Shown: in pieces, positions 13,942 to 34,790 of the stretch
Position numbering within the stretch: position 1 is the first letter of the stretch
How the letters are laid out: every line of letters starts with the position of its first letter
Virus record (IMG/VR): IMGVR_UViG_2585427727_000020
DNA length: 34,790 nucleotides
Source of the DNA: a virus
Taxonomy: Duplodnaviria > Heunggongvirae > Uroviricota > Caudoviricetes
Direction: 5' to 3' (one strand)
The notes under the pieces: generated by a model
The model's database searches: none
Seen by the model: only the letters and a program-made list of their open reading frames with translations
What the model was told of the DNA's origin: nothing
Made by a program: the position numbers and the translations under genes

Positions 13942-15147
13942 TTACGCCACTGCAATCTTCAGCAGTTTGATGGCCTGCGAATCGACCAGCATGCCGCCGG
14001 TGCGTTTGGTGGTATAAAAACCGACAAACGGTTTATTGGTGTACGGGTCACGCAGAATGCGGGTGCCGATACGGTCAACGATGGTGTAACCCCGTTTGAA
14101 GTTACCAAATGCAATGGCTTTCGCATCAGCGGCGATATCCGGCATCTGTTCGTTTTCAGCGATACCGTAACCCGCCAGAGAGGACGGCTGCCCCAGCTCC
14201 AGCCCCGGACGCCACAGATAGTTACCCTCGCTGTCTTTCAGCAGACGGATGGCAAACAGGCTGTTGTTGTTCATCATGAACTTCGCACCGGTGCGGTGTG
14301 CCTTACGCAGTGTGTAAATAAGTTTGATAATGGCGTCTGCGGTCACCGCAGTCGCTTCGCCGGATACAATATGCTGAAGTTTGCCGAACGCCCGGACCTT
14401 ATCGGTTTCATCAGTGGATTCATACGCCAGGAACCCTTTCGGCTTCTTGGTGCCATCGCCTGAGGTAAAGGCAATTTCTTCCTGTTCGGCAAATTCGGTT
14501 GCCAGCTCGCTGTTGATCCAGGCCTCCACGTTGAAGAAGGCATCGTCCAGCATTTTCTGGGTGGCCTGCGGGTTGCCGTAGATTTCCCCCATGAGAGGTT
14601 CAATCAGCTCCAGTTTGGAGGTGGCAGTCTGGGATCGCGTATCCGTTTCCCCCACCCATCCGGAAGCCGTGCCGCCCAGATTCACCAGTTTTTTGTAGTC
14701 GGAACCGCCAACGGTGATCACCGTGGCTTCCTAGCGCATCACCACTTCATCTTTCAGCAGGGTGAGAATGTTGCGATCCAGCGCTTCCGGCACGGCATAG
14801 CCACCGTCTTCATCGGTGCCCACCTGCAATGCCTTACGCTCCAGATCGCGCAGACCATCTTCACGGCCTTTACGCAGGAAGCCCACAAACGCTTCTTTAT
14901 GCTCGGTGGCCAGTTTATTTTGCGCACCACCTGCCGGACGTTTCAGCTCAAGCAGCTCTTTTTCAAGATCGCTTTTGAGGTTTTCCAGCTCGCTGAGTTT
15001 CCCGTTCAGGGTTTCCACCTGCCCGGCAAGTTTGCCTTTTTCCTGCTCAATCGCATCCACGCGCTTGTCGTTCTTTGCTTTGAAGTCGTCAAACTTCTGC
15101 TGCAGCTCCTGCGCGACCTGTTCGACATCTTTAATATCTACCGCCAT
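13942..15147 (-). pseudogene. HK97-fold major capsid protein with N-terminal coiled-coil domain, interrupted by an in-frame TAG
   Basis: ORFs 14731-15147 (N-terminal coiled-coil, 138 aa) and 13942-14721 (capsid body) are in the same frame, separated only by a TAG at 14731-14733 and three sense codons (...EVVMR * EATVITVGGSDY...). Joined length is about 400 aa. Confidence 0.65.
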
Positions 15148-20964: not shown

Positions 20965-21291
20965 TTACTCCTTCGAGCTACCAAACTTGTTACCGATTAC
21001 TCTCATTGCCGCACCACGAATAGCATCGACCCCGATCAGCCCAACGCCGCCACCAATGGCAACAGAAAGAGATTTAGGCCATCCGACATACTCAAGAGCG
21101 GATGCAAAAGTCAGTGTCAGAGCGCCACAGAGAAAAATCTCGAGCGTTTTTCGCTTCCAGCCCCCACCCCCGCCAAAATAGGCAATGCGCAAGCCAGCCA
21201 TAACGATCGACATAATTACTGCGCCCAGTGGTGTGTCTCCACGCCACCAGCTCTGGAACAACTCCAGCCAGGTATTTGGGTTATGAGGCAT
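20965..21291 (-). CDS. Holin
   Basis: 108-aa ORF with hydrophobic helices and a charged C-terminus, immediately upstream of the endolysin. Confidence 0.7.
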   Translation of the reverse strand: MPHNPNTWLELFQSWWRGDTPLGAVIMSIVMAGLRIAYFGGGGGWKRKTLEIFLCGALTLTFASALEYVGWPKSLSVAIGGGVGLIGVDAIRGAAMRVIGNKFGSSKE

Positions 21292-21430
21292 TTGTAGTTA
21301 TCTCTCACCTCGCCGATAAAGGAGGTGCAAATTGAGGGTGTACCACGAACCGCAAATCAGAAGCGGAAACGTAAAAGAAGCCGAGCCAATGGATAACTGC
21401 GGGATAGGGCAGAAGCAATTAATCCCTAGG

Positions 21431-21465
21431 CCCAGAAACGACAAAACCCGCTCGACGGCGGGTTT
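21431..21465 (-). terminator. Intrinsic terminator upstream of the holin (candidate late terminator, tR'-like)
   Basis: Minus strand: 8-bp stem AAACCCGC / GCGGGTTT with 6-nt loop, followed by TGTCGTTT; about 150 nt upstream of the holin start. Confidence 0.4.
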
Positions 21466-21588
21466 AAGTTGTGTGGCGAAGTAACCACTCATAACAGATT
21501 ACAATGGTTTCTGCGGACCGCGTGAGTGATTTTATTTAATTTTTAATGTAAATTTCAGTTCCTTTTGAGTGATTACATGGAGTACATA

Positions 21589-22404
21589 ATGAAAGTGTTC
21601 ATAAGTTGGTCTGGGCAAAGAAGTCAAGCTGTTGCAGAACTTATTAGCGACTGGCTGAAGTGTGTTATCCAAGCTTCGCAGCCATGGATTTCAACCAGAG
21701 ATATTGATCGTGGCGCTATATGGTTCTCTGAAATTAATGATAAATTAAAAGATGTATCTGTCGGCATTGTATGTTTGACACAAGAAAATAAAAATAAACC
21801 ATGGATTTTGTTTGAAACAGGAGCACTAGCAAAAGGACTTTCAACAAATAAAGTTTGTACATTCTTGATTGACTTAAAACCAGAAGATTTAAAAGATCCA
21901 CTTGCTCAATTCAATCACACAACGCCAAATAAAGAGAGTGTTTGGGAATTAGTAAGGACAATAAACAATTGTCTTGTCGATAAATCTTTAGATGACCGTA
22001 TTCTAAAGCAAGTTTTTAATACATACTGGGAGCAATTTGAAAACAATTTTAAACGAGCTTTAGATCAATACCCTCCAACTGAAGAAGTAAAACCACGTAC
22101 TGAACAAGATCTTTTATCTGAAATATTACAAAACACTCGTTCATTAAATCAAAGGATTAGAGTTCTTGAACGTGATGCTACTATCAACTCCATAAATAGC
22201 CATATGAATTTAACTCCTGTAGAACAGAAGGATGTTTGGTATCTACAAAAACAGATAGATGAAATTATAAAGAATGGATTGCTTGACGAGGATGAAATAA
22301 TATCATTCTTAGACAAATATGACATTCCTGAAAAAATGATTAGGAACCAAATAAAATACACATTAAACCAACGATTATCTGAAAGTAATAAAAAAAAGAA
22401 ATAA
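21589..22404 (+). CDS. TIR-like domain protein (N-terminal TIR-like fold, C-terminal helical domain); low-GC moron between Q and the holin
   Basis: N-terminus has the TIR-like signature order: VFISWSG strand, helix, DIDRG...W...I turn, VGIVCLT strand, then WILFETG with a Glu. Very AT-rich; opposite strand to all flanking genes. Start at ATG 21589 preceded by GGAG; alternatives at 21565 and 21577. Confidence 0.55.
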   Translation: MKVFISWSGQRSQAVAELISDWLKCVIQASQPWISTRDIDRGAIWFSEINDKLKDVSVGIVCLTQENKNKPWILFETGALAKGLSTNKVCTFLIDLKPEDLKDPLAQFNHTTPNKESVWELVRTINNCLVDKSLDDRILKQVFNTYWEQFENNFKRALDQYPPTEEVKPRTEQDLLSEILQNTRSLNQRIRVLERDATINSINSHMNLTPVEQKDVWYLQKQIDEIIKNGLLDEDEIISFLDKYDIPEKMIRNQIKYTLNQRLSESNKKKK

Positions 22405-22409
22405 CCTTC

Positions 22410-22446
22410 CCCCGTAAACATAAAGTTTACGGGGTTATTTTTTATT
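22410..22446 (+). terminator. Rho-independent terminator of the TIR-like gene
   Basis: Perfect 10-bp stem CCCCGTAAAC / GTTTACGGGG with 5-nt loop, followed by TTATTTTTTATT, starting 6 nt after the stop. Confidence 0.7.
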
Positions 22447-22810
22447 ATAACTCCATATCTAAATGAATATCGAGAGTAGAAAGGCAACCATCAATGAATC
22501 CCTCTGCTAACAATATTTCTATACGGATTAATTTCTCATCCTTTCCTTGTATTTTGGCAATCTTCCGCTTTGAAAACCCGTACAAATAATGCGCAACCAG
22601 TAAAGAATGCTCATAAGGTTTTCTTTTTTTTAGTTGCTCCAAGCAACTTTCAATAATTAGCGCATCATTATCTGAACAAGCTTGGCGTGCCTTACTGGTA
22701 TAGGGAAGAAGTCCCTTAAACCCAGCAGCTATAGGCGAATAGTCCACTCCTGAGCTATCACTAGCTGCCCATGCCCCCCAACGTTCAAGGATGATCTGAA
22801 TATCACGCAT
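22445..22810 (-). CDS. Q-type late antiterminator (QuuD-like)
   Basis: MRDIQIILERWGAWAA...AAGFKGLLPYTSK... resembles E. coli prophage antiterminator Q proteins; sits upstream of the lysis cassette. Start taken at the internal Met. Confidence 0.7.
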   Translation of the reverse strand: MRDIQIILERWGAWAASDSSGVDYSPIAAGFKGLLPYTSKARQACSDNDALIIESCLEQLKKRKPYEHSLLVAHYLYGFSKRKIAKIQGKDEKLIRIEILLAEGFIDGCLSTLDIHLDMEL

Positions 22811-22827
22811 CAAATTTCTCCACAAAA

Positions 22828-33454: not shown

Positions 33455-34351
33455 ATGCAGTTGTATGCCTTACGTGTGTTAATGAGACCGCGCGATCCAG
33501 ACCTCTTTTCGAAAGGAGCTGTTCAGAAAGATATCTCTCATTTTGAAAATGCTATGGTTGTCGCTGCAAAAAATTTACACATGACGTCATCAACACCTTC
33601 CGTTCATAAGAAAACTAGTTACACCCTGAAATTGAGCATAAAACCTACTGATGGTGTTATGGCTGGAGTCATATCAAAGCTGCAAAAGATTAAAGGACAT
33701 GATAAAGACTTTCGAGAGTACGATGTAGACAACTATCCACCTATCGTATGGATTTGGGACAAAGTAGAGCAGGTGTTACTGGTTGAGAGGAAAACCGCTG
33801 TTTTCAAGGATGCGCAACAAGTTGCTAAAGCATTCGAAGATCTAGCCAATAACGACTATTTGGCTCAGTTAGGACTTAGAATATTTATAGAGCCTTGTCT
33901 TGAAATGGAAGATTTTTGGTCAGAATACCATAGGCTTCAATTTATCGACAAAGTCAGCTTTACGCTGATTACTCCGAATATCTTCGGAAGCAGTAAGCAA
34001 GCGTTAACCAATGATTTACGGAAGCTTGAAAAAGATACCAATGCAAATACTGTGACCACTATTTTTGAAAACAAAGATGGCAATTTGAAACTCAAAGGTT
34101 CTCATTGGGCTGAGACTCTTGTTGACTGGGTCAAAGATGGTGGCGGGTCATGGTTGATTAAAGGACGTAAGACACTCAAGTCAAAATCTACTACGGTATC
34201 CAGTAATCAGACAGCCAAAATCGTGCTGATCGAAGGTGAGATATCAGAAATTGAACTTGATGGCTACTCAGCAAATGATATTAAAGAGATCATAGCATTA
34301 CATCAAAACAGGTATACGTTCAAAAATGCAAAATCTAACTGTCTGGATTAA
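33455..34351 (+). CDS. Low-GC hypothetical protein, first gene of the SOS-box cassette
   Basis: 298-aa ORF with ATG preceded by GGAG; AT-rich unlike the prophage backbone; no family recognised, no HEXXH or other catalytic motif seen. Confidence 0.6.
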   Translation: MQLYALRVLMRPRDPDLFSKGAVQKDISHFENAMVVAAKNLHMTSSTPSVHKKTSYTLKLSIKPTDGVMAGVISKLQKIKGHDKDFREYDVDNYPPIVWIWDKVEQVLLVERKTAVFKDAQQVAKAFEDLANNDYLAQLGLRIFIEPCLEMEDFWSEYHRLQFIDKVSFTLITPNIFGSSKQALTNDLRKLEKDTNANTVTTIFENKDGNLKLKGSHWAETLVDWVKDGGGSWLIKGRKTLKSKSTTVSSNQTAKIVLIEGEISEIELDGYSANDIKEIIALHQNRYTFKNAKSNCLD

Positions 34352-34790
34352 AGCTATAGCTACCTTCTTTTTGTGCTTAGCATTAGCATCGACTGATAAA
34401 ACCATTTATACCTTACTTGAGCAGGCTTCTGCTGGAGTAATAGGTTCAATACTTGGAGGTATTGCCGCAGGTATCTCCGTTATCTTCGGAATTTTGGCTG
34501 TCATTAATAAGGGCGAGAAAAGCACAGACTTTACGGACTATTTAGATAGTTTAGAATTAGATTTGAAATTACTGGTCATGTGTCTGGCAGTAACAATCTT
34601 CCTTCCCTATTTACGTAATTATGACATACCACTAGTAAATTATCCTCAGCACGAATTTATCCCTTCTAAAGGCAAGCTATTTACTGCTTTAGAACTTTTT
34701 GCTATCGTGCTATCTCTTAACCTCATTGCAGAAGTGATTAGCTGCATGATTTTAGTGGTTAAAAAAAGTTTCAAAATTGAATCAAAGTGA
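34326..34790 (+). CDS. Small polytopic membrane protein (about 4 TM helices, glycine-zipper segment), second gene of the cassette
   Basis: 154-aa ORF overlapping the upstream gene by 26 nt; hydrophobic helices include GSILGGIAAGISVIFGILAV. The stop codon is the last 3 nt of the window. Confidence 0.6.
   Translation: MQNLTVWIKAIATFFLCLALASTDKTIYTLLEQASAGVIGSILGGIAAGISVIFGILAVINKGEKSTDFTDYLDSLELDLKLLVMCLAVTIFLPYLRNYDIPLVNYPQHEFIPSKGKLFTALELFAIVLSLNLIAEVISCMILVVKKSFKIESK

Follow-up and report, generated by a model that had tools for sequence, protein, structure and literature searches.

What can a single low-GC gene be doing between the antiterminator Q and the lysis genes of an Escherichia coli prophage, on the strand opposite to its phage neighbours? 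The question is raised by the viral record IMGVR_UViG_2585427727_000020, a stretch of 34,790 nucleotides (hereafter the window, meaning the whole of it) whose host element is an E. coli prophage integrated beside icd, at the e14 site, with the structural genes of an SfII/SfIV-type myovirus and a lambdoid regulation. Every phage gene in the half of the window concerned lies on the minus strand, and the sole open reading frame on the plus strand of the gap between Q and holin encodes a protein with an N-terminal TIR domain. Here, I argue that this gene is a self-contained, one-protein anti-phage immunity factor, a TIR sensor-effector that would abort infection, a reading to which I assign a probability of roughly 55%. 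It is carried by a gene that has its own translation signals and terminator, that stands without the partners of its nearest validated homologue, that is mobile as a single unit, and whose product joins an almost frozen TIR domain to a highly variable tail.

A solitary TIR gene

The gene, its signals and the parts of its product are the following (window coordinates):

21589-22404, plus strand: TIR-protein coding sequence, 816 nt including the stop codon, 271 amino acids (RefSeq WP_000862379.1, 'TIR domain-containing protein')
21579-21582, plus strand: Shine-Dalgarno sequence GGAG, read off the sequence, 6 nt 5' of the ATG
21589-21924, plus strand: TIR domain, residues 1-112, made of strand-helix repeats (strands 2-6, 31-34, 56-63, 88-93 and 109-111)
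21814-21816, plus strand: GAA codon of Glu76, the putative catalytic glutamate, in the motif P71-W72-I-L-F-E76-T-G78
21925-22206, plus strand: conserved helical region, residues 113-206, containing a 35-residue helix (172-206) and along which identity falls from 64% to 49%
22207-22401, plus strand: hypervariable C-terminal three-helix domain, residues 207-271, as delimited by the structure model, identity and non-synonymous divergence
22410-22444, plus strand: intrinsic terminator with a perfect 10-bp stem, a 5-nt loop and a T-run
21549-21554, plus strand: candidate -10 element TGTAAATT, weak, of a putative promoter of the TIR gene's own

The open reading frame as mechanically called (21565-22404, plus strand) opens at a TTG at 21565; the true start is placed at the ATG at 21589, because of the GGAG preceding it, because all homologues begin with MK[VI]F, and because RefSeq annotates the same coding sequence. 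The gene has a GC content of 32.5%, that of the holin being 52.6% and that of the whole window 50.9%. Its terminator begins 5 nt past the end of the gene and is made of CCCCGTAAAC-ATAAA-GTTTACGGGG, then TTATTTTTT, with a folding energy of -19.5 kcal/mol (z = -4.35), none of 200 shuffles being as good. Having an A-tract upstream and a U-tract downstream, it looks bidirectional and probably also closes the Q transcript; in phage mEp390, bidirectional terminators are annotated at the equivalent place. On the 5' side, a weak AATGTAWATT lies about 35 nt from the ATG, at equal distance in the window and in the Klebsiella homologue, and was left unflagged by a consensus scan. The first-pass annotation, made from the letters of this DNA, had described a low-GC gene on the opposite strand between Q and holin, with a terminator of its own and a perfect 10-bp stem; open reading frame, strand, composition and hairpin all bear this out. 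Of the span it gave to the insertion (21292-22450), gene and terminator do lie inside, whereas some 300 nt (21292-21588) are late-leader DNA of the phage and fall outside the inserted gene.

The same annotation had read the N-terminal part of the product as a TIR-type fold, followed by a helical domain, and had likened the Glu of WILFETG (residues 72-78) to the catalytic Glu of TIR NADases. Pfam TIR_2 (PF13676) does match residues 3-97 with 31.1 bits against a gathering score of 28, and PHROG 13899, a family of unknown function, is matched at E 3e-100; a search of NCBIfam with the protein returned no match. An AlphaFold2 model built on an alignment of 134 sequences (predicted local distance difference test, pLDDT, 92.5; predicted TM-score, pTM, 0.73) comprises a strand-helix TIR core (1-112), a helical region (113-206) and a three-helix C terminus, so that a helical part is indeed predicted from residue 113 to residue 271. 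The modelled core has the flavodoxin-like strand-helix fold and is superimposable on solved TIR domains. A first model, derived from 30 close homologues, was dropped (pLDDT 70, below 50 in the TIR core).

As to the glutamate, the residues W7, S12, G42, N67, W72, E76, G78, P104 and N126 are invariant among 134 diverse relatives, and the family profile 'NknkpWilFEaGaL' aligns with 'NYASSSWCLDELAEI' of the RPP1 NADase in such a way that W72 and E76 fall on the W and E of 'SSWCLDE'. E76 belongs to a W-x-x-x-E motif with which the third helix begins. The RPP1 Glu aligned with E76 is, by counting, E158, which I take to be the catalytic residue. A profile search of PDB sequences with a shallow alignment found nothing, and a deeper profile matched plant TIRs weakly. 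Fold prediction and alignment thus support a TIR domain with Glu76 in the presumptive catalytic position, as expected of an NADase-type TIR. The 35-residue helix (172-206) possibly serves oligomerisation, and the C-terminal domain (207-271) is proposed to be a specificity or sensor module.

A membrane helix, suggested by the name 'TIR-TM' of the PADLOC model that the protein matches, was considered and rejected: the protein is devoid of a hydrophobic segment, a single borderline one is found among 270 relatives, and the name belongs to the system. The model in question, PDLC03016, matches the window protein at E 1.7e-57 (194 bits, model positions 1-248 of 293) and was traced to phage P2_AC1 and its three-gene system, called Rst_2TM_1TM_TIR by DefenseFinder and 2TM-TIR, 1TM-TIR and TIR-TM by PADLOC. 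The P2_AC1 genes match these three models at E 7e-58, 3e-75 and 3e-118, respectively, and the P2_AC1 TIR protein reaches 393 bits on PDLC03016 (E 2.7e-118). Homologues of the one-transmembrane (1TM, PDLC02977) and two-transmembrane (2TM, PDLC02978) partners gave no tblastn match at E < 0.01 in the window, nor any in 172 other loci, P2_AC1 itself excepted; no SLATT gene and no further TIR gene was found in the window either, in keeping with the stand-alone gene first described. Since PDLC03016 is matched and both membrane partners are absent, the locus shares the TIR lineage of 2TM-1TM-TIR without being a member of that system. The three-gene system is rare in E. coli (14 of 5426 genomes), and the 25 E. 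coli genomes that carry the TIR gene overlap neither with these 14 nor with 6 others that have weak 1TM-like DNA. Judged from sequence, the common condition of TIR genes in the 2TM-1TM-TIR lineage is to stand alone.

Distribution and selection in the lineage

The family counts 2084 clusters at 90% identity and, at 50% identity, 11,260 representatives with E <= 1e-3, 3365 of which have E <= 1e-30. Almost all of its members are 250-300 amino acids long, the match being restricted to residues 1-200. The 25 E. coli genomes, which come from unrelated sources, with carriers isolated from humans, dogs and poultry, have the open reading frame of the window intact and at 99.6-100% identity, and relatives of 60-78% identity occur in marine and soil bacteria and in metagenome-assembled genomes (Halomonas, Shewanella, Bermanella, Planctomycetota, Bacteroidota and Paenibacillus).

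Among phages, Klebsiella prophages (72% identity) and mEp390 (59%) carry the gene in the same slot beside Q, on the opposite strand and along with different holin families, and the Enterobacter relatives too occupy the slot next to Q. In 14 of 80 IMG/VR loci, the TIR gene is convergent with a Q-DUF968 pair, together with three different lysis cassettes; since Q is only 65-100% identical across these loci, the linkage must be old, suggesting that Q and TIR form a module of long standing and were not brought together by a recent insertion. Q itself is low in GC (39.9%), and the TIR gene and a DUF968/HNH gene are inherited along with it (window 22445-22825; survey loci L094-L118).

Another mode of carriage concerns integrons: in Vibrio cholerae and V. 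metoecus, the gene forms a 1.1-kb single-gene cassette between VCR repeats, and in Shewanella a TIR copy is the first cassette beside intI. On V. cholerae chromosome 2 (L003, 7832-11187), the TIR cassette is present twice in one superintegron array, as copies of 1116 and 1117 bp with 100% identity over their initial 300 nt, and 5 kb of this array contain seven VCR copies. In three Haemophilus genomes (L025, 3713-7897; L027; L062), a member of 253-266 amino acids lies between nrdA and nrdB, on the same strand, within the essential ribonucleotide reductase operon.

Across 76 diverse genomic loci the neighbours are heterogeneous, four loci excepted. Those of Bermanella, Marinomonas, Paenibacillus and Tissierella have SLATT/DUF4231 2TM proteins in the vicinity, as well as further TIR_2 or ThsB_TIR genes, and are SLATT/multi-TIR clusters of Thoeris-like arrangement (L015, 5045-7946; L014, 4300-6804; L033, 541-5190; L058, 7204-8119). 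A search for attC sites in the Bermanella and Marinomonas clusters (L014, L015) yielded no convincing ones, so that these two clusters may be true operons. As arrangements of sequence, the contexts support an autonomous unit, and autonomy is further supported by the absent 1TM and 2TM partners, by the non-overlapping carrier genomes and by the single-gene cassettes of Vibrio and Shewanella.

A case in point for the coupling of a constant to a variable part is the decrease of mean identity to the window protein among close relatives, from 89% over the TIR domain to 64% over residues 113-165, 49% over 166-206 and 26% over the C-terminal domain. When the codons of the window gene were compared with those of Klebsiella, Vibrio, Shewanella, Bermanella, Marinomonas and mEp390, the TIR domain had a non-synonymous divergence (dN) of 0.04-0.12 with a synonymous divergence (dS) saturated or above 1.7, and the C-terminal domain a dN of 0.55-1.4. 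Because synonymous sites are saturated, the 88-94% identity of the TIR domain across genera (window 21589-21924 against L003, L004, L008, L012, L014 and L015) reflects constraint and not recent transfer. All copies have a GC content of 33-38%, regardless of host. The conservation of the TIR domain is far tighter than an enzyme active site alone would demand. A frozen TIR followed by a variable tail is the pattern to be expected if a conserved effector were coupled to a diversifying sensor.

The Q-to-late-leader interval

The elements that surround the gene are all on the minus strand:

22445-22825, minus strand: antiterminator Q gene (PF06530, E 1e-48; 39.9% GC; RefSeq start at window 22813), convergent with the TIR gene
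20965-21291, minus strand: lambda-family holin (PF05106; 52.6% GC), the first gene of the lysis cassette
21292-21533, minus strand: conserved late-leader block upstream of the holin, which is phage backbone and not cargo
21465-21444, minus strand: tR'-like terminator inside the late-leader block, from a terminator scan
21529-21558, minus strand: promoter-like site CTGAAA-18-TAAAAT, with 9 of 12 consensus matches, straddling the upstream edge of the late-leader block

Downstream of the holin follow a GH24 lysozyme and then the spanins. The late-leader block, from 21292 to about 21533, recurs with 85-93% identity in phages SfII and SfIV and in over 1000 genomes of E. coli, where it always abuts the holin. 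The boundaries of the slot were drawn from an alignment of five prophages carrying different cargo, among which homology ends at about 21533 towards the leader and, towards Q, precisely at its stop codon; the cargo therefore sits between Q and the late leader, whereas stx genes are located downstream of the late terminator. Every cargo in the slot carries its own hairpin after the Q stop, and the TIR cargo is transcribed away from the late operon. The slot occupies positions 21534-22444 of the window, with related loci at L009 2125-3456, L010 4620-5620, L011 4619-7011 and L002 2405-3827. The cargoes of related prophages, all on the opposite strand, are a KAP NTPase matching the PADLOC candidate PDC-S20 (E 5e-177), two hypothetical, unannotated proteins, the nucleoid-associated protein NA37 with a 404-residue protein, and SfIV_49 with SfIV_48. 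In related prophages, the stretch from Q to the late leader is a hotspot of variable cargo.

The comparison with the Shiga toxin (Stx) phages, in which the first-pass annotation had assigned the gene to the moron slot of the Q-S junction, holds in part. As with the Stx-type morons of lambdoid phages, foreign cargo occupies the Q-to-S interval of a prophage with lambdoid regulation; unlike them, the TIR cargo lies upstream of the late leader and terminator, on the opposite strand and with its own terminator, and is hence not co-transcribed with the late genes. A late-operon moron of the Stx type would be found downstream of pR' and tR', on the late strand and under Q control, which is not where the TIR gene is. 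According to the prophage alignment, only the -10 side of the promoter-like site at 21529-21558 (minus strand) is within the conserved block; this site is the candidate late promoter pR', which would be back-to-back with the start of the TIR gene. Another promoter-like site, a strong one at 22473-22444 (minus strand), which as pR' would put the TIR gene antisense to the late transcript, was rejected, because its TATAAT arises from the Q stop codon and because it is not conserved in a prophage with an 85%-identical Q.

Elsewhere in the window, the major capsid gene (13942-15147, minus strand) has an in-frame stop at codon 139 (…VVMR*EATV…) and, in strain 1190, bears a RefSeq pseudogene flag; the TIR gene is intact in what is probably a defective prophage. 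Two overlapping genes (33455-34351 and 34326-34790, plus strand), whose products have 298 and 154 amino acids and no Pfam or PADLOC match, lie just past the integrase at the att end and may be a second cargo module of the prophage.

Candidate functions and known systems

If the gene is a one-protein immunity factor, it would be a moron of the prophage and would be expressed in the lysogen. The TIR at the N terminus of the product would cleave NAD+, with Glu76 as catalytic residue, and would be held inactive in uninfected cells, until the variable C-terminal helical domain recognised a component of an infecting phage. Recognition would entail self-association of the TIR domains, probably via the long helix and TIR-TIR surfaces, thereby completing the active sites; NAD+ would be consumed, the infected cell would stop growing or die, and the spread of the phage would be blocked, that is, infection would be abortive. 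In this scheme I infer the NADase activity, the anti-phage phenotype, the trigger, the oligomerisation and the expression in the lysogen. By analogy, the context is consistent with defence, since a KAP NTPase (PDC-S20) is among the cargoes of the slot in related prophages and since the P2_AC1 TIR, as nearest validated homologue, belongs to a protective system.

Several points weigh against this reading. The P2_AC1 TIR has two membrane proteins as partners in a locus of three genes, and in 4 of the 160 loci surveyed the family member has SLATT 2TM effectors and other TIR genes as neighbours; both kinds of loci fit a signalling role for at least some members, and sequence and fold cannot tell NAD+ depletion from signal synthesis. 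A consensus scan upstream of the TIR gene returned no convincing sigma-70 promoter, so that expression in the lysogen is assumed. Lastly, 20 of the 32 TIR candidates tested in a survey of E. coli gave no defence (PMC11350192).

The main rival, a serious one though clearly the less probable, is a ThsB-type signal generator, which would turn NAD+ into a messenger derived from ADP-ribose acting on an unlinked effector, such as a membrane protein, the gene being insufficient alone. It draws on the membership of the P2_AC1 TIR, whose 1TM and 2TM partners were proposed to be messenger-activated, in the same family, and on the SLATT/DUF4231 2TM and TIR_2 or ThsB_TIR neighbours in the Bermanella, Marinomonas, Paenibacillus and Tissierella clusters. 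No effector candidate is present, however, in the 34.8-kb window, nor as an adjoining gene in at least 150 of the 160 loci; the spread as single-gene integron cassettes and as a one-gene moron speaks against dependence on a partner; the ThsB profiles fail, and the nearest solved structure is SpbK (see below) and not ThsB.

I regard as improbable a role in the life cycle of the phage itself or in counter-defence, whereby the protein would, for instance, remodel NAD+ pools or destroy NAD-derived messengers on behalf of the Q-DUF968 lineage. The linkage of TIR, Q and DUF968, kept in 14 of 80 viral loci whose Q alleles have diverged and which have three different lysis cassettes between them, would agree with such a role, and a TIR surface near-invariant despite saturated synonymous divergence could reflect docking to a conserved partner. 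Yet the gene lies on the opposite strand, outside the late operon and with its own terminator, and it also occurs in settings that are not phages, such as integron cassettes and the Haemophilus nrdA-nrdB interval, and in many bacterial phyla; moreover, no counter-defence TIR enzyme of a phage is known.

Less credible still is a Tcp-like virulence factor, of the TcpC/BtpA type, that would interfere with TLR/MyD88 signalling in animal hosts. In its favour, a fold search with the poor first model returned BtpA/TcpB and PdTIR, the E. coli carriers come from humans, dogs and poultry, and the neighbourhood of the Q-S junction is the toxin site of Stx phages. It was down-weighted on taxonomic spread, close relatives (60-78% identity) being widespread in environmental bacteria, and is further opposed by the want of a secretion segment in 270 relatives (one borderline hydrophobic segment at most), by the position of the gene outside the late transcript that drives toxin release, and by the order of domains in Brucella TcpB/BtpA, in which the TIR domain is C-terminal, the reverse of the window protein. 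That the prophage is dead and the gene its silent or decaying cargo, devoid of any present function, has a similarly slim chance: the premature stop in the major capsid gene and the failure to detect a strong promoter point that way, but the open reading frame is intact and almost identical in 25 genomes of unrelated origin and the family is under strong purifying selection.

As regards what is already known, RefSeq names the product as a TIR protein, PADLOC models its lineage, and single-protein TIR defences of E. coli were published in 2024 (PMC11350192). Literature searches for the accession, 'TIR-TM' and '2TM-1TM-TIR' found nothing, and a preprint on defence in the Vibrio cholerae integron leaves TIR, NAD and Thoeris unmentioned. 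What the present analysis adds is the solitary state as the common one in the lineage, the unusual pattern of selection, and the Q-to-late-leader interval as a cargo hotspot.

If the single gene defends alone, the TIR subunit of 2TM-1TM-TIR would be part of a very large family, with over 11,000 clusters at 50% identity, which current defence finders ignore because they require both membrane partners; it would further offer a compact model, of 271 amino acids, for a TIR enzyme coupled to a diversifying sensor, with natural C-terminal swaps available. Likewise, the Q-to-late-leader interval of SfII/SfIV-type and lambdoid prophages would be a hotspot worth mining, as its KAP NTPase (PDC-S20) and unannotated cargoes illustrate. 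The gain for E. coli biology would be modest, since one-protein TIR defences are already documented there. A bolder generalisation, which I consider rather unlikely, is that the P2_AC1-type TIR clade, so far known only for supplying the enzyme subunit of the rare 2TM-1TM-TIR system, is mostly a free-standing one-gene immune module, made of a near-frozen TIR and a swappable C-terminal sensor and spreading as integron cassettes, as Q-adjacent prophage cargo and as an insert in the nrdAB operon; the near-invariant TIR surface would then mean docking onto a conserved cellular partner or substrate other than, or besides, NAD+, a property undescribed for bacterial TIRs.

Among known systems, the closest validated relative is the P2_AC1 TIR. 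The three cloned P2_AC1 genes protect against lambda and LF82_P8, and the membrane proteins were proposed to respond to a messenger made by the TIR (Rousset et al. 2022, PMC9122126). The two proteins share 38% identity over residues 1-179 (E 1e-33), an N-terminal TIR with the first helical segment, the match to PDLC03016 and the carriage in a variable hotspot of a prophage; they differ in that the P2_AC1 protein has 315 amino acids and an unrelated C-terminal half, and is preceded by genes for 126 (2TM) and 185 (1TM) amino acids, neither of which is at the window locus. With ThsB of Thoeris, the window protein has in common the nature of a bacterial TIR and the logic of the catalytic Glu, and some of its relatives lie in clusters of several TIRs with a membrane effector, resembling multi-thsB loci. 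ThsB profiles did not reach it (PF08937, E 0.062, below cut-off and over residues 196-262, outside the TIR domain; PADLOC ThsB1, E 0.018), and no ThsA effector (SIR2-SLOG or Macro-TM) is in the RefSeq annotation of the whole prophage.

By structure, the top Foldseek match (E 3e-6) is TIR-APAZ of the short-Argonaute system SPARTA, an NAD+-depleting effector activated by oligomerisation, in which an N-terminal TIR is likewise followed by a non-TIR domain; unlike it, the window protein has neither an APAZ domain nor an Argonaute partner, and identity is about 15%. The nearest solved structure is that of SpbK (PDB 9phb) from ICEBs1 of Bacillus subtilis, a likeness at the level of the fold (18% structure-aligned identity). 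SpbK, the product of a single gene, is a TIR NADase that acts by abortive infection and has the SPbeta portal protein YonE as its activator (PMC11984713); it differs in the reverse order of its domains, the TIR being C-terminal, in its Gram-positive host, and in being carried by an integrative and conjugative element and not by a prophage. Along the same line, the E. coli systems TIR-V, -VI and -IX consist of one gene each, whose product has no recognisable domain besides TIR; they act by abortive infection, require the TIR active-site residues and have portal or tail-fibre proteins as triggers (PMC11350192). The window protein may be a member of TIR-V, -VI or -IX, one of the 20 inactive candidates of that survey, or part of an untested cluster; its one-gene, solitary TIR architecture, in E. 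coli too, fits theirs, and it is in SpbK and TIR-V, -VI and -IX that the reading of the gene as a one-protein immunity factor would, by analogy, have its precedents.

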